A DNA stretch of 12,720 nucleotides from Acidimicrobiia bacterium (GTDB taxonomy: Bacteria > Actinomycetota > Acidimicrobiia > Spongiisociales > Spongiisociaceae). A program made the position numbers and the translations under genes. This document shows, piece by piece, positions 7,502 to 12,720 of the stretch. Numbering within the stretch: position 1 is the stretch's first letter; every line of letters starts with the position of its first letter. Below the pieces are notes generated by a model that saw nothing but the letters and a program-made list of their open reading frames with translations, had not been told where the DNA came from and ran no database searches. The stretch spans positions 1 to 12,720 of the forward strand of contig JBFGLM010000086.1 of assembly GCA_041576165.1 (NCBI GenBank). The letters are read 5' to 3'.

Positions 7502-8158
7502 TCATGGTTCCACCAAACGAAACATGAAGCTCACTGGGCCGATGGTCAACTGAGCGCCGGGCCGCAGCGGTGTCGAGTTCGTAACGCCGATCCCGTCGAC
7601 GGTGGTTCCATTGGATGAGTCGAGATCCGTTATCCAGGTCCGGTGCTGGGCGCGGTAGATGATGGCGTGACGCCGCGAGACCTCGGCGTCGGGGAGACGG
7701 ACATCGCAGTCCGCGGCGCGACCGATCAACACCCGATTGGCGCGAAGCTCGGCATGGCGCCCGGTGCCTATCAGCTGTCCCCACGGGTCCAACTCGCCGG
7801 GCGCTATGCGGCTCAGCATCTTCATGTGGTTGGGCTTCACGGAGGGCTCGGGGACCACCTCGATGTGAGGCGGCCCTTCGAGCCGCCAGCCGCGCTCGAC
7901 AGCGGTGGCCGCCAGAGTGTGGGTCAGCTCCGTGGCCAACGAGCCGGCTCCGACCGCGGCGAGATCCTGTGGGTTGAGGGCGATCTGATAGTCGTTGGGG
8001 ACCACCGGGCCGGCCGGGCCCTCGATCATGTTGAGGTCTGCGTCCCGCACGATCCGGGTGCCCAAGTCGACGGGATGCACCCGCCCCCGGAAGATCGCCC
8101 CCGACACCCCGTCGACGAGGCGTTCGAGACGCTTTTCCAACTCACGTGCCAGCCGCAT
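7502..8158 (-). CDS. fhaA: FhaA-type protein (DUF3662-like N-terminal domain + C-terminal FHA), 218 aa
   Basis: N-terminus LEKRLERLVDG...VHPVDLG...VVPNDY and FHA motifs IGRA...VSRRHA...DLDSSNGT. ATG at 8158 preferred over TTG 8197. Divergent from tRNA-Leu as in the known actinobacterial locus. Confidence 0.88.
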   Translation of the reverse strand: MRLARELEKRLERLVDGVSGAIFRGRVHPVDLGTRIVRDADLNMIEGPAGPVVPNDYQIALNPQDLAAVGAGSLATELTHTLAATAVERGWRLEGPPHIEVVPEPSVKPNHMKMLSRIAPGELDPWGQLIGTGRHAELRANRVLIGRAADCDVRLPDAEVSRRHAIIYRAQHRTWITDLDSSNGTTVDGIGVTNSTPLRPGAQLTIGPVSFMFRLVEP

Positions 8159-8171
8159 GGCTGGGATTGTA
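8159..8171 (-). promoter_or_regulatory. Putative -10 element of a leaderless fhaA transcript
   Basis: Minus strand reads TACAAT-cccagcc-ATG (TACAAT = 8171-8166). No Shine-Dalgarno. No convincing -35 at 17 bp. Confidence 0.55.
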
Positions 8172-8234
8172 AGGAGCCAGCGGAATAGCAGGAGCAATGG
8201 CCGCGGCGGGCGCGAATGATCGGTCGGCTGGGGC

Positions 8235-8243
8235 TGGTACCAT
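8235..8243 (+). promoter_or_regulatory. Putative extended -10 promoter of tRNA-Leu
   Basis: TGgTACCAT (TGnTAnnnT) 12 nt upstream of the tRNA 5' end. Confidence 0.5.
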
Positions 8244-8255
8244 CTTCACCCGCCC

Positions 8256-8339
<84 letters not shown>

Positions 8340-8340
8340 C

Positions 8341-8619: not shown

Positions 8620-8880
8620 CTAGGCGCTCCTTTCCATCTCTTTCTGGACGTCCACCTCGGTGATGGGACGCTCGAAATAGGCCGCCCACGCATTGAAGGC
8701 AAGCCCGACACCCCAGCCCGCGATTGGCCAAATCGGCCAGAAATACCCCGCGCCGGATATCGCCCAGATGACGACCAGCATCGTATTCACGACGACGTAG
8801 ACCGCCGCATGGTTTCTGAAGTCCCGCTTTGCTTTCACCCGTCTCAGGGCCGCTTCACGGCGATCAGTTAGGTCGGCCAC
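8620..8880 (-). CDS. Small 2TM-domain membrane protein (86 aa)
   Basis: GGAGG RBS before GTG at 8880. Sequence A.RRVKAKRDFRNHAAVYVVVN.MLVVIW...YFWPIWPIAGWGVGLAFNAW matches the 2TM family pattern. Confidence 0.85.
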   Translation of the reverse strand: MADLTDRREAALRRVKAKRDFRNHAAVYVVVNTMLVVIWAISGAGYFWPIWPIAGWGVGLAFNAWAAYFERPITEVDVQKEMERSA

Positions 8881-9062
8881 GGTCACCTCCTCACTCGGGT
8901 TTGCGATTCTCACGCGAGCGTGCCTTGCGACTCCGAAATGCGATAGAGGCGTACGCCCTCTTGGCCGATGACAAATCCGGCGGCCGCAAATGGTTGCCTG
9001 AGCCGACCGCTCGGCCGGTCGTTGCATGTTGCGATTAGGGCGAACGTGCATCCGGTCGCAGC

Positions 9063-9410
9063 CGGCCGGCCGGTCTTGCGTTCCCACATGTCGGCGAAGG
9101 CTTCGATGGCGGCTTCCTCATAGAGCGGCCGATCGGCCGCGACCGGCGGCGGAAATTAGGCGTGCTCGTTGGCAAGCTGGGCAGCTCGCTGACGGCTGAC
9201 GCCGAGGCGCTCACCGATCGTCGTCAGGTTGAGCAACGGGGTCCGGACCCAGGTGGCCTCACCATCGGGAGTGTTGGCGTCCGCAACCACCACGGCGGTC
9301 ACTATCCCCTCCAGGCCGGCAGGGGCCGCAGCGGCGTCCTCCAAGGACAGAGCCATGCCCAACGCACTGGAAGCGTCCGTGGCGCTGAAGGTCAGGCGCA
9401 TACGTGGTGA
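9063..9410 (-). pseudogene. Disrupted AlpA/HTH-like DNA-binding protein gene (in-frame TAA; 5' end uncertain)
   Basis: Reads LLNLTTIGERLGVSRQRAAQLANEHA*FPPPVAADRPLYEEAAIEAFADMWERKTGRP. The family-like sequence continues in frame past TAA at 9156-9158. Boundaries approximate. Confidence 0.7.
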
Positions 9411-9438
9411 TCGGCGTGAGCATTGGGTGTGCGGTCGA

Positions 9439-9477
9439 AGATGTAGACAGGCCATATACATTATGTAGACTACATCT
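9439..9477 (+). promoter_or_regulatory. Putative promoter/operator of the toxin-antitoxin operon
   Basis: AT-rich patch. TAGACA (9444-9449), 16 bp, TAGACT (9466-9471), 6 nt, ATG. Palindrome ATGTAG-A-CTACAT (9463-9475) and direct repeat ATGTAGAC at 9441 and 9463. Confidence 0.7.
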
Positions 9478-9714
9478 ATGGGTACTACGACAATTCGAGT
9501 GGATACCGACACCCACGCCCGCCTCCTCGCTCTGAGCAAAGCGACTGGGGCATCGCTCATCGAGACGGTTCGCGACGCCGCCGAAGCTCTCCGACGCCAA
9601 CGCTTCGCCCATCAGGTGGCCGCCGAGCTTGCCGATCTCCGCGAGGACCCTGAGGCATGGCATGCCTACCTCGCCGAGGCGGATGACACGTCGGTGAGCG
9701 ATGGCATCGGTTGA
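9478..9714 (+). CDS. Putative antitoxin with ribbon-helix-helix-like N-terminus (78 aa)
   Basis: TTTIRVDTDTHARLLALSKATGASLIETVRDA beta-alpha-alpha pattern and acidic C-terminus. Overlaps the toxin start by 14 bp. Confidence 0.8.
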   Translation: MGTTTIRVDTDTHARLLALSKATGASLIETVRDAAEALRRQRFAHQVAAELADLREDPEAWHAYLAEADDTSVSDGIG

Positions 9715-10039
9715 TGATCTCTGGCTCGTCGACTTCGGCGTGCCGTATCCCGGTGAGCCGGCCGCGCACCGCCCGGCATTGATCCTTGGTCCGCCCGACA
9801 CGTTCGGTCCTGGGTTTCCGTTCGTGATTGCAGTCCCACTGACCACTGCCCGGCGCGGCCTCTCGCTCCACGTCGAGGTCGAGGCCAGCGCCGACACCGG
9901 TCTCGACTCCACCAGCTACATCCAGTGCGAGCTGATCCGGTTGATCAACCGCAACCGGCTCGTTCATCGCCTCGGCGCCATAGGACCAGAGATCAGCAAC
10001 CAGGTCAGCACTGTCATCAAGACGCTGCTCAACCACTGA
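9701..10039 (+). CDS. mazF: Type II toxin, PemK/MazF family endoribonuclease (112 aa)
   Basis: LWLVDFG.P..GE...HRPALIL, VIAVPLTT, GL...SYIQCELIR.I...RL..RLG motifs. Downstream of a small RHH gene. Confidence 0.88.
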   Translation: MASVDDLWLVDFGVPYPGEPAAHRPALILGPPDTFGPGFPFVIAVPLTTARRGLSLHVEVEASADTGLDSTSYIQCELIRLINRNRLVHRLGAIGPEISNQVSTVIKTLLNH

Positions 10040-10197
10040 CCGGCACGCACCAGCGCGAGCACCTATGTGCCGTTCCAGTGCACTCGGCGGAACGCTCGTT
10101 CGTGCAACGTATTTGGTGTTCGGCGCCGCCACAGGCGACGCGGGGGAACCCCGGGATCTGTGGCCGAGAGCCTGTGAGTGACCGCGTTGATGAGGTG

Positions 10198-10953
10198 TCA
10201 GCTGGTCTGCTCGGCTGGGCTCCAGCGTCCTGGGCAGCCGTCGCAGTCTTTCCAGATTCGCTCGGGAGGAACGCCTGTGGCGACTCGTTGGGCCTCGTCG
10301 GCGAGGACGACTCCGATGAGGTGTCCTTGGGGGTCGGAGACGACTACGAGCTTGGTGCCGCGTCTTTTCATCTGCTGGAGGAGGGGGTGCAGGGACCCGT
10401 CCGGCCGGACTGTGGTAGGCCCGAGTTCCATGACCGCGTCGACAGTTGATTCGTTGTCGGCGTCCCAGGCGGAGCCTCGCAATCTCCCGACGACGATGCC
10501 GTCGCAGTCGACCACGAGGGCTTCATCCCATCCGGCCTCCTTGGCTCGTTGCCGAACGGTGCCGAGCGTTTCATGCGGTCGGGCGGTGAGGATGTCGGGT
10601 CGGGTGGCATCAGCGACGCGGAGGCCGGGGTCTTCGGTGCCGTCCACGTTGAGGCCGGCGGCTTTCCAGTCGGCGATGCCCGCGGTGTAGTCGTAGACCT
10701 GTTCGAATCCAAGTGCTTCGAGCCGGCACGCGGCTCGTGGAGACATGTCTCACAAGCCGTCGTGTCAGTAGACCACCACCGGTTTGTCTCGCCGCAACGC
10801 CGAAGTGGTCTCAGCGTCGAGGCGACGCAGCGGAACGCTGATCGCACCCGGGATGTGCTGCGCGGCGTACTCGGCGTCGGGAAGGACGTCCACGACTTGC
10901 GCGCCGTGGTCGATGAGTTCGAGCAGCCGGGTGCGATCGATGTTGGTCACCAT
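10198..10953 (-). CDS. Rhodanese-like + CBS-pair protein with two in-frame TGA codons (candidate selenoprotein, U63/U68), 251 aa
   Basis: ATG 10953 MVTNIDR...VVDVLPDAEYAAQHIPGAISVPL...KPVVVY, TGA (10767-10765), HDGL, TGA (10752-10750), then DMSPRAACRLEALGFEQVYDYTAGIADWKAAGL in the same frame. This completes a rhodanese domain, followed by two CBS repeats. Confidence 0.8.
10719..10737 (-). other. Candidate bacterial SECIS hairpin
   Basis: mRNA CGAGCCG-CGUGC-CGGCUCG: perfect 7-bp stem starting 12 nt after the second UGA, with G at loop position 2. Confidence 0.55.
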
Positions 10954-10954
10954 G

Positions 10955-11115
10955 TCAGGTCGCCTGTCGGAGGGCTGCTCGGAGCTGGTCGAGGCTCGGA
11001 GACCCGCCAAAGCCCGTCGCGGTCTGATACACCCGGCAGGACAGACCGACCGGGGTGTCCGGGTCGGCGAACGGGTCGGACCCGTCGATGAGGACTGTGG
11101 GTGAACCTCGGAAAG
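10955..11115 (-). pseudogene. 3' half of a small thioredoxin-like protein (family variously annotated as DUF2703 / alkylmercury lyase-like / DF family)
   Basis: FRGSPTVLIDGSDPFADPDTPVGLSCRVYQTATGFGGSPSLDQLRAAL matches the C-terminal half of this family as I recall it. The N-terminal half is absent. Stop is 1 nt before the rhodanese ATG. Confidence 0.7.
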
Positions 11116-11117
11116 GA

Positions 11118-11339
11118 CGCGCTGAGGGCGCCGACCGGGTCGACAAAGGCGGCTGCGAATGAGTCTCCGGCCGTAGTGAATACGTAGCCACCGTGTCCTT
11201 CGACAGTCTGGCGCACAATCGCGTCGTGTTGACGCACCGCTTCCTTCATCGCCTCCGGCTGCCCATCCCAAAGACGCGAACTGCCTTCGATGTCGGTGAA
11301 CAGGAAGGTGGTGATCCCGGTTGGGAGGTCGATGGCAAC
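11118..11339 (-). pseudogene. 5' fragment of a class III adenylate/guanylate cyclase domain gene
   Basis: LPTGITTFLFTDIEGSSRLWDGQPEAMKEAVRQHDAIVRQTVEGHGGYVFTTAGDSFAAAF...ALSA, then similarity ends abruptly. No in-frame ATG/GTG/TTG between upstream TAG (11366-11364) and the LPTG motif. Confidence 0.82.
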
Positions 11340-11685
11340 CCCTAGCTCTGGTTGCTTCCGAACCTAACCGCCCGGCACCATCTAAGCACAGATCCCCCAA
11401 ACTGTTGACTTGGAAATCCCCGAATCGACTTCACCACGTCGTCGACCTTCTTCGTTGAGGTGCCAGTCACATCGGCGTCATGATCACCGCCCACAGCGCC
11501 CGATCCACTGCGACGCCTCGGCTCCAGGAGGGTCGAGAAGAACGCCCCACCCGCACCTTGGGGATCCGCGACTCGACATCCCCCCGATCGGCTGGGACTT
11601 GCACCAAGGACTACAGGGTGTCGAGCACAGGCGCTCGGTTCCAGCCGCGCGGGGGTCCCGGTTCGGCAGAGTTCGGATGCTGTGG

Positions 11686-12189
11686 CTAGTTGCCAGGCTT
11701 CAAAACCAGAATCGAAAGCGTCTGCACGCCAGAGATGATGACGACCTGGCCCTCCTCGAAGATGTCAGTCTCGAGGTCAGCGTTCAAGATGTCAGCAAAC
11801 TCAGCGTCGATGGGGAACGGTCCATCCACGAACTCAAAGGTATTGGTGCACTCGACCAGATCCTTCCGCCCGTTCGCCGGTGCCGCGGCGCCGAAATCCG
11901 CCACGTCGACAAACGTCGCCGATGCGCTATCTCCGTCAACGATCTGTACCGTGACCTCACTGGTGAACGTGAACTGCTTGGCGACGTAGTTCTCGCCGGT
12001 TTCGACGTCCCAAGCTGCTAAGCCTCCCCCGGGTTGGGGCCGCACCGTAACGTCGCCGATGGGCGTATCGCACTCCAGCGGAATCAGCTCGTCGGCGTTG
12101 TTCTTGTTGTTCGGCGCTGCTGTAGCCGGTAGCGCCGAAGTCAGCAGCATGGCTGCCACCAAACCGAGCGTCGATAGTGTCTTCCTCAT
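11686..12189 (-). CDS. Hypothetical secreted protein (167 aa, Sec signal peptide)
   Basis: GGAGG RBS before ATG 12189. MRKTLSTLGLVAAMLLTSALPATA|AP has an A-x-A cleavage site. Acidic, beta-rich mature part with two Cys. Confidence 0.82.
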   Translation of the reverse strand: MRKTLSTLGLVAAMLLTSALPATAAPNNKNNADELIPLECDTPIGDVTVRPQPGGGLAAWDVETGENYVAKQFTFTSEVTVQIVDGDSASATFVDVADFGAAAPANGRKDLVECTNTFEFVDGPFPIDAEFADILNADLETDIFEEGQVVIISGVQTLSILVLKPGN

Positions 12190-12307
12190 GGGTCTCCCCT
12201 CCATCGCAATGGTCCCATCTCGTGTGAACCCCCTAGAGCAGGGCGTGATCTCGAGCCTACCCGCGTCGTGACGCGAGCGAGGCTCCGCCAGAAGAAGCCA
12301 AGCGGCG

Positions 12308-12332
12308 CTTGCTGGCACCGCGTGCCAGCAAG
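12308..12332. other. Perfect 11-bp inverted repeat upstream of the secreted-protein gene
   Basis: CTTGCTGGCAC-cgc-GTGCCAGCAAG. Confidence 0.6.
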
Positions 12333-12720
12333 GCAAAGATGTTGGGAGGCCGGCTCCTGGCGCTGATCTCCGCGGGCAGCGCTCTAACAGGGTCAAGCAC
12401 CACCATGCTATCGGAGCCGACGCACGGAGTCGGACCACTCAGATCACAGATCGCCTCGATCGACATGGCGCACTCCGTTTCGAGCCGAACCGGCGACTTG
12501 ATGATGTTGCTCATGCTGGGGCGTAGGCCACGCTTCGGTTGGGTCATTGGCGGGTCGCTCGCGAACCGGCTGCCAACCGGTGTGGGTTTGGCTCGTGAAT
12601 GGGGTGCGGCCCCGCTGGTGGCCGCTTGACGGGGAGTGGCTCAAGAGAGGTCTGCACTGCTGCAAGTCGCATTGCCCTCCTCGGCACATCGAGCTCGAGG
12701 AAGGGACGGGACGTATGGCA

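Follow-up and report, generated by a model that had tools for sequence, protein, structure and literature searches.

Can a gene with two in-frame UGA codons five residues apart encode a single functional protein? The question is raised by a rhodanese-CBS gene in a 12,720-nt stretch of DNA from an Acidimicrobiia bacterium (the window, meaning the whole stretch that was analysed). Positions 10953..10198 of the minus strand form a single frame of 251 sense codons, from an ATG at 10953-10951 to a TGA stop at 10200-10198, and the only internal stops are TGAs at codon 63 (10767-10765) and codon 68 (10752-10750). When these are read through, the frame gives KPVVVY-U-HDGL-U-DMSPRAACRLEALGF, where U is selenocysteine (Sec), with the loop VVVY-U-HDGL-U-DMSPRAAC. 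The original prediction, made from the letters of the window, had described two same-frame open reading frames (ORFs) split by two TGAs, had written the same read-through and had seen no other stop or frameshift; we re-derived the frame and confirm each point. Both ORFs, 10765..11400 and 10198..10746, are listed under translation table 11 in the frame of the gene. The part of ORF 10765..11400 that lies 5′ of 10953 is outside the gene and is an out-of-frame read-through of an upstream gene remnant.

We conclude that 10953..10198 is a real gene, cut in pieces by gene callers at its two UGAs. On the comparative evidence below, it very probably encodes one functional 251-residue selenoprotein, in which both UGAs would be read as Sec via SelB and Sec-tRNA(Sec). 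A Sec-x4-Sec pair would then sit in the active-site loop of the rhodanese domain, after which come a CBS pair and a short CxGC hairpin. The rhodanese-CBS family is widespread and so far uncatalogued in marine and sediment actinobacteria. The gene and its parts are as follows:

10198..10953, minus strand: rhodanese-CBS selenoprotein gene, from frame, Pfam, full-length homologues and AlphaFold2 model
10657..10929, minus strand: rhodanese domain (Pfam, residues 9-99, 65.4 bits against a cut-off of 22.2)
10765..10767, minus strand: UGA codon 63, directly after the VVVY strand and aligned with the first Cys of the BH2092 CxxxxC loop; read as Sec
10750..10752, minus strand: UGA codon 68, same loop, five residues after codon 63; read as Sec; the more widespread Sec site of the family
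10270..10626, minus strand: CBS pair, residues about 110-228 (Pfam CBS at 173-217, 35.1 bits against a cut-off of 24)
10222..10254, minus strand: C-terminal W..C.GC.G.W beta-hairpin (Cys237, Cys240), from motif and model strands

Conservation of the gene and its UGA codons

The AlphaFold2 model, built with 73 aligned homologues, has a mean predicted local distance difference test score of 92.9 and a predicted template-modelling (TM) score of 0.73. In it, a rhodanese fold and a CBS pair precede a C-terminal beta-hairpin at residues 232-246, with strands at 232-237 and 240-246. The rhodanese domain belongs to PF00581, and U63 directly follows the strand at residues 59-62. Pfam matches one CBS repeat (PF00571), and the whole pair, as a Bateman module, is backed by the fold, for which Foldseek returns CBS-pair structures at TM scores (target) of 0.73-0.87. 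The top Foldseek match is BH2092 (PDB 3nhv; E 1.7e-10, 33% identity, root-mean-square deviation 1.4 Å over 107 columns), and a profile alignment places U63 and U68 on the two Cys of its Cys-x4-Cys loop. The TGAs had been predicted to fall where rhodanese Cys residues are expected, and they align there both with this loop and with TGC/TGT codons of homologues.

We searched the genomes of 41 relatives in six frames, reading through stops and blind to codon identity, and found 13 homologous places at 45-81% identity. Nine have TGA at both sites (one being a paralogue in the same assembly as the window) and four have TGC/TGA; the latter come from the unpublished genomes G028 and G039, and none of the later counts rests on them. 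A one-genome-per-species scan with peptide patterns requiring Cys at one site gives 55 loci, 54 of them tabulated by script (28 Cys/Cys and 26 Cys/TGA) and one, L075, assigned to Cys/Cys by eye. A DNA pattern with TGA at both sites gives 45 loci, comprising 44 true full homologues and a chance match (L131).

As distinct motif regions, there are 45 with TGA at both sites (UU), 28 with Cys then TGA (CU; 24 without the unpublished genomes) and 29 with Cys at both (CC), proportions that reflect the scan definitions and not prevalence. These counts answer in the affirmative whether TGA is conserved and aligned with TGC/TGT, a check proposed with the prediction. The form with TGA followed by Cys was found 0 times, though one Cys-scan pattern would have caught it. 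Codon 63 is TGA in 45 distinct sequences and TGC or TGT in 53-57 others; codon 68 is TGA in 69 of 98 published distinct sequences (73 of 102 with the unpublished genomes) and Cys in 29. In other assemblies, 45 distinct sequences of 45-84% protein identity carry the same two TGAs in the same alignment columns, and their frames stay intact downstream; the peptide between them and its flanks is invariant in alignment A1. The double-TGA pattern is far beyond chance.

Selection was estimated from 39 full-length UU sequences as the ratio of nonsynonymous to synonymous substitution rates (dN/dS). The median is 0.22 upstream of the TGAs (codons 1-62), 0.14 just after them (codons 69-105) and 0.22 over the CBS part; although rough, dS being near saturation, these values indicate purifying selection on both sides of the TGAs, another of the proposed checks.

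A pseudogene with two nonsense mutations, or an assembly error, would be another source of the TGAs, and the truncation of the upstream partner gene in the window makes local decay conceivable. Both TGAs nevertheless occur, column for column, in 45 distinct sequences whose frames stay open downstream, and dN/dS is 0.14-0.22. Eleven studies hold parts of the stretch, and summed depth peaks over 10701-10787, where many relatives have near-identical nucleotides. Contigs from other studies' runs (X5 record 21, X6 record 30) span both TGAs with 0 differences, and because they agree base for base, the TGAs are ruled out as assembly errors. With next to no probability left to them, both the pseudogene and the assembly-error readings are excluded.

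The public annotation offers another reading, in which the product is a 182-aa CBS protein starting at Met70 (10746), an ATG one codon after UGA-68, leaving the rhodanese part as a degenerate relic or as a peptide of 62 aa in its own right. Among the best 120 protein-database matches, 117 are calls of this truncated kind (177-196 aa, starting just past the second TGA), named "CBS domain-containing protein" or "hypothetical"; the other three are full-length Cys forms named "rhodanese-like domain-containing protein", and none is named a selenoprotein. Truncated calls are, however, what any gene caller that takes TGA as stop will yield, and fragmentation by standard pipelines had been foreseen. 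The upstream 62 codons are under purifying selection (dN/dS 0.22) and contiguous with the rest in all Cys forms, the flanks and the peptide between the TGAs are invariant in A1, and in the AlphaFold2 model a start at Met70 falls in the middle of the rhodanese fold. We therefore consider the annotated product very improbable.

The genome also carries the means to decode UGA as Sec. The assembly to which the window belongs, as contig C86, comprises 161 contigs and 5.1 Mb (96.5% complete, 7.5% contamination) and holds two tRNA-Sec genes (79.9 and 72.9 bits; both called tRNA-SeC with anticodon TCA by ARAGORN), two selA and two selB over cut-off, and a selD (G000:C1:171385-172317, minus strand) with one in-frame TGA, thus a selenoprotein gene itself. 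The selA gene is over cut-off in 39 of the 41 genomes of the order sample, whether or not the genome carries a rhodanese-CBS gene. Sec recoding as originally proposed is backed on four sides: Cys alternation, the machinery genes, selection and the contigs from other studies.

A second, intact pair of a DF-family gene and a rhodanese-CBS gene (TGA..TGA) lies in the same assembly at G000:C84:2033-3080, plus strand, with 64% protein identity to the window copy. This second pair, the doubled selA, selB and tRNA-Sec and the 7.5% contamination may reflect true paralogy or two organisms in the bin.

Candidate SECIS and the decoding of UGA-63

Bacterial Sec insertion would call for a selenocysteine insertion sequence (SECIS) close to the UGA, and a hairpin of this kind, H2, lies inside the coding region:

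10719..10737, minus strand: H2, SECIS-like hairpin with a 7-bp stem CGAGCCG/CGGCUCG and loop CGUGC (10726-10730)

H2 starts twelve nt after UGA-68 and has a minimum free energy (MFE) of -12.1 kcal/mol; its loop starts 19 nt past UGA-68 and 34 nt past UGA-63. According to the bSECISearch model as given in a 2026 review of prokaryotic selenoproteomes (PMC13188914), a bacterial SECIS (bSECIS) has a loop of 3-9 nt, a stem of 4-16 bp, a G within the first two loop bases, a UGA-to-loop distance of 16-37 nt and MFE <= -7.5. H2 conforms in stem, loop, G position, spacing and energy for UGA-68, and in spacing for UGA-63 too. It is comparable to a hairpin in selD, with loop GUCCCGG, that starts 16 nt after the selD UGA. 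An Rfam scan of 10600-10850 at E <= 10 returned four chance-level matches only and no SECIS family.

In the 69 published Sec-form sequences, 99.8% of 469 H2 cells are paired, against 18-44% in slid-partner controls. Sixteen changes are to G-U, and in a single pair four cells are compensated on both sides (C-G to U-A three times, C-G to A-U once). Because the conserved peptide confounds this pairing, we examined third positions, codon 76 and the stem of the CC forms. Pairing is 100% in UU, 99.4% in CU and 74.9% in CC forms. Third-position entropy in Sec forms is 0 at Ala75 and Arg77 and near 0 at Leu78, compared with 0.87-1.09 in Cys..Cys forms. Codon 76, in the H2 loop, is UGY or UGG in 65 of 69 Sec forms and so encodes Cys or Trp, whose codons have little in common beyond the first two bases; in Cys..Cys forms it mostly encodes His, with Cys in 1 of 29. 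We infer that H2 is the likely SECIS of the rhodanese-CBS gene, and for UGA-68 it would be ideally placed.

The same observations bear on whether a suppressor tRNA or an altered code might instead place a standard amino acid at the TGAs, be it Trp, Cys or Gly. Sequence alone does not tell which residue is inserted, which leaves some room for this proposal. Against it, TGA also terminates the rhodanese-CBS gene and most of its homologues, the two sites alternate with Cys only, the SECIS-like hairpin goes with TGA and is not maintained where Cys takes its place, and the genome has a complete Sec machinery. We regard a standard amino acid at these codons as highly improbable.

For UGA-63, a single SECIS, H2, serving both codons is the simplest model because both loop distances fall inside 16-37 nt, and we give it roughly an even chance. 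Compared with known bSECIS elements, it would require one hairpin for two UGAs 15 nt apart, on which the literature examined carries no statement. A second, overlapping hairpin, H1, is enriched in double-TGA forms and may help at UGA-63:

10732..10758, minus strand: H1, candidate second hairpin, overlapping H2 and with UGA-68 in its 5′ arm; a hint only

At its strongest, the case for H1 would be two dedicated, overlapping hairpins, in which H1 directs Sec insertion at UGA-63 and is melted by the ribosome, after which H2 forms for UGA-68. The H1 loop starts 17 nt past UGA-63, the window H1 has an MFE of -19.8 kcal/mol, and paired cells amount to 89.6% in UU, 64.8% in CU and 62.5% in CC forms. 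The Leu67 codon, whose third base pairs in H1, ends in G in 44 of 45 UU sequences, whereas that base is free in CU (entropy 0.15 versus 1.61), and RNAalifold on UU sequences alone favours a structure with the H1 core. These signals are offset by others: H1 does not rise above column shuffles, which also counts against its helping at UGA-63; the tree offers only four independent UU/CU contrasts (sign-test p about 0.5); the outer pairs are often disrupted, being kept in 24 of 45 and 33 of 45 sequences; and the first two loop bases lack the G of the bSECIS model. H1 is accordingly rejected as a proven second SECIS, on the shuffles and the small number of independent contrasts, and kept as a rival whose two-hairpin form we consider possible but doubtful. 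A longer RNAalifold fold of the UU sequences alone, in which the flank of UGA-63 pairs with the H2 loop region, was also rejected as UU-specific, 86.7% of its pairs being kept in CU forms. With two UGAs 15 nt apart and one well-defined hairpin, the locus is a compact test case for the reach of a bacterial SECIS.

Spread, neighbourhood and possible function

We placed 89 full-length proteins on a maximum-likelihood tree, with Sec sites as gaps and with L101 and the four unpublished-genome loci left out; its root is unknown, and we claim no direction of Cys/Sec change. An Acidimicrobiia clade (SH-aLRT branch support 99) has 47 rows, 38 UU, 8 CU and 1 CC, and holds all UU sequences but one, L044, which sits on a long branch just outside. 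The UU label needs 4-5 changes inside this clade, and a CU sequence (L047) is found among the nearest UU relatives of the window copy. CU forms also occur in Gaiellales, Thermoleophilia, Nitriliruptorales and Chloroflexota metagenome-assembled genomes (MAGs), and CC forms in cultured Streptosporangiales and Micromonospora, some Solirubrobacterales and one Acidimicrobiia MAG. The distribution suggests that Sec at position 68 is the wider and perhaps the older state. At position 63, where Sec may have arisen inside the Acidimicrobiia clade, Cys and Sec have replaced each other several times, which is how a functional Cys/Sec site should behave. The C-terminal CxGC motif is present in 37 of 39 UU, 8 of 22 CU and 1 of 29 CC full-length sequences; the sole CC case is the Acidimicrobiia locus L051, with 0 of 28 CC sequences having it outside the Acidimicrobiia clade. 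A natural series of Cys..Cys, Cys..Sec and Sec..Sec in one loop provides a clean system for the value of a second Sec.

Nine double-TGA loci (L105, L106, L113, L117, L121, L123, L130, L133 and L143) come from MAGs labelled Kiloniellales, Gammaproteobacteria or Acidobacteria. Eight of them nest among Acidimicrobiia on the protein tree, from which L106 is absent. This suggests mis-binning or mislabelling and not transfer.

To describe the neighbourhood, ORFs within 4 kb of 100 loci were clustered and each family was named from one representative. A DF-family (seleno)protein gene (representative: NF049942, 68.8 bits against a cut-off of 70) lies directly upstream on the same strand at 20 of 39 UU, 15 of 27 CU and 0 of 28 CC loci with at least 700 nt upstream. 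Among the 100 loci, a MerR-family regulator is near 31, MerB (PF03243) near 19, an ArsR/SmtB regulator near 18 and a membrane protein near 11. The genes typically run MerB (opposite strand), ArsR, membrane protein, MerR, DF and rhodanese-CBS. The membrane protein, about 277 aa and upstream in the same operon, has an in-frame TGA at ...AGFG-U-TGPLL... and a second motif, FFSPCSFP, near its N-terminus. It is found at:

L117:1297-2130 and L132:3576-4403, both minus strand: membrane protein
L027, L029, L044, L056, L105, L118: membrane protein
L121, L123, L124, L128, L133: membrane protein

The site codon is TGA at 12 of these 13 loci and TGT at one (L044), and it looks like another Sec/Cys site. 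Apart from a chance-level GPHR_N match, no Pfam or NCBIfam family matches the protein at E <= 0.1; it may resemble CcdA/DsbD, an impression that these searches do not support.

The window copy is intact, and locus L136 encodes an identical protein. Its surroundings differ from the typical order:

10955..11113, minus strand: DF-family gene remnant, 5′-truncated (NF049942, 35.4 bits against a cut-off of 70, profile positions 38-96 of 96)

The remnant corresponds to the C-terminal half of the DF gene and ends 1 nt before the rhodanese-CBS ATG; tblastn covers residues 50-100 only. It is preceded by a fragment with a weak match, just short of the cut-off, to the initial third of a class III adenylate/guanylate cyclase domain (PF00211; 21.3 bits, cut-off 21.9). 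In the nearest relatives (L023, L024, L127 and L047), a MerR-family ORF lies upstream of an apparently complete DF gene. Positions 10955-11345 (minus strand) of the window look like the scar of a rearrangement in which the MerR-family regulator and the N-terminal part of DF were lost. Elsewhere, the window holds FhaA, FhaB, a PP2C phosphatase, FtsW/RodA and a PBP transpeptidase, an actinobacterial cell-wall/division cluster that marks the contig as ordinary chromosome. ORF 8620-9087 (minus) has a 2TM domain. Pfam gives no match for ORFs 9156-9560, 9557-10132 and 11686-12438 (all minus strand), nor for 9259-9912, 11410-12021, 12444-12719 and 8026-8340.

What might the protein do? The two selenols could cycle between diselenol and diselenide, or chelate a soft metal. 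They may take part in a relay with the operon partners, namely the DF-family thioredoxin-size protein, the membrane Sec/Cys protein, the MerR/ArsR regulators and MerB, with the CBS pair as a ligand-sensing or dimerising module. Judging from motif and context, a selenol/thiol redox or chalcogen-transfer relay is our tentative preference, at somewhat less than an even chance. Direct binding or hand-over of a soft metal (Hg) by the two selenols is a less likely alternative; it would resemble the logic of mercuric reductase, which has a Cys-x4-Cys plus a C-terminal Cys pair. CBS pairs in general are established as a fold for adenosine-ligand sensing or dimerisation, and by analogy this suggests one of these roles here. 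The neighbourhood lends the gene a metal/organometal-resistance flavour that goes beyond the adenylate-regulated selenium/sulfur transferase or diselenide switch first guessed at, and an operon with a second likely selenoprotein, in the membrane, suggests a selenium-based metal/redox relay in sediment actinobacteria.

Several observations weigh against the picture of a double-Sec protein served by H2 and acting in such a relay. Most H2 pairs are invariant in a region that also encodes a conserved peptide, and covariation amounts to one pair (four cells) plus GU wobbles. The base of H2 lies 27 nt from UGA-63, which raises the question of whether such a hairpin serves that codon, and SECIS spacing is strict in E. 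coli. One genome, G035 (98% complete), carries two UU copies (on C118 and C88) and has no selA match with TIGR00474, which is either an assembly gap or something needing explanation. The sequencing-run search found no RNA run that holds the stretch. Because the upstream DF gene is truncated and the MerR-family ORF is missing in the window, promoter or expression signals of the window copy may have been lost or changed. The functional reading, finally, rests on neighbourhood and motif, and the Cys..Cys forms occur without such context.

Comparison with known systems

No curated model recognises the rhodanese-CBS family, every score being below cut-off. The protein also falls short of the models for the thiosulfate sulfurtransferases GlpE (31.9 against a cut-off of 102) and PspE (18.3 against 102). 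Hundreds of database entries stand as truncated "CBS domain proteins", and a family model would correct them in Acidimicrobiia, Gaiellales, Thermoleophilia and Chloroflexota MAGs. In the literature searched we found no paper on a rhodanese plus CBS selenoprotein; supplements, which may list the family, lay outside the search. The main texts on deep-Sep (PMC12013277) and BSepDB (PMC13326102) mention neither rhodanese nor CBS, and in the Acidimicrobiia selenoprotein literature the paper on selenoproteins does not mention the family.

The original prediction knew of no characterised rhodanese with two Sec in the active loop fused to a CBS pair. Its first half does not stand as a novelty, since double-Sec rhodanese loops are in print. 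The review of prokaryotic selenoproteomes lists five rhodanese selenoprotein forms, among them TsoB ("rhodanese form 5"; NCBIfam NF045694), a rhodanese/DsbD fusion with UxxxxU and two Sec (PMC13188914), and an earlier survey describes a second Sec giving UxU in another rhodanese family (Zhang & Gladyshev 2007, PMC1976440). The CBS fusion is absent from the literature searched.

TsoB resembles the window protein in several described traits: both are rhodaneses with two Sec in UxxxxU and a thiol/selenol membrane partner, and both have an ArsR/SmtB-type regulator nearby (TsoR for Tso; an ArsR-family ORF at 18 of 100 loci here). The window protein nevertheless scores 31.7 bits against the TsoB cut-off of 805 and lies outside that family. 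At 251 aa it lacks a membrane domain and has a CBS pair and a CxGC tail instead, the membrane protein being encoded by a separate gene; the neighbouring ArsR scores 28.8 against a TsoR cut-off of 115. We put forward, as a speculative synthesis with well under an even chance, that a single or nested SECIS programmes two Secs 15 nt apart, and that the diselenide-capable U-x4-U loop could form the cytoplasmic end of an actinobacterial multi-selenoprotein mercury/soft-metal/organometal relay, a split-gene counterpart of Tso. The relay would comprise the membrane Sec/Cys protein, the DF-family protein and rhodanese-CBS, under MerR/ArsR control and beside MerB.

The LYCAU/CxU family (NF041203) and the UxU form are likewise rhodanese-fold selenoproteins with a second Sec beside the first in the active-site loop. 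Their spacing is x1, in contrast to U/C-x4-U here, the LYCAU family is single-domain and deltaproteobacterial, and at 26.5 bits against 115 the window protein is not a member. BH2092 of Bacillus halodurans (PDB 3nhv, 3o3w), a structural-genomics rhodanese, matches the rhodanese domain best in both sequence and fold, but has Cys at both sites, a single domain, no CBS pair or CxGC tail and no described function.

The architecture recurs in the Cys..Cys members of the family, for example in Nonomuraea, Planomonospora and Micromonospora (L074-L100), which share the rhodanese and CBS domains and the loop at 38-46% identity and go by the database name "rhodanese-like domain-containing protein". They differ in having no Sec, no conserved H2 (74.9% paired) and no DF/MerR/MerB neighbourhood (0 of 28). 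Set against these systems, what looks new here on the literature searched is the family, architecture, phylum and context of a rhodanese-loop double selenoprotein, and double-Sec rhodanese chemistry as such is not unprecedented.

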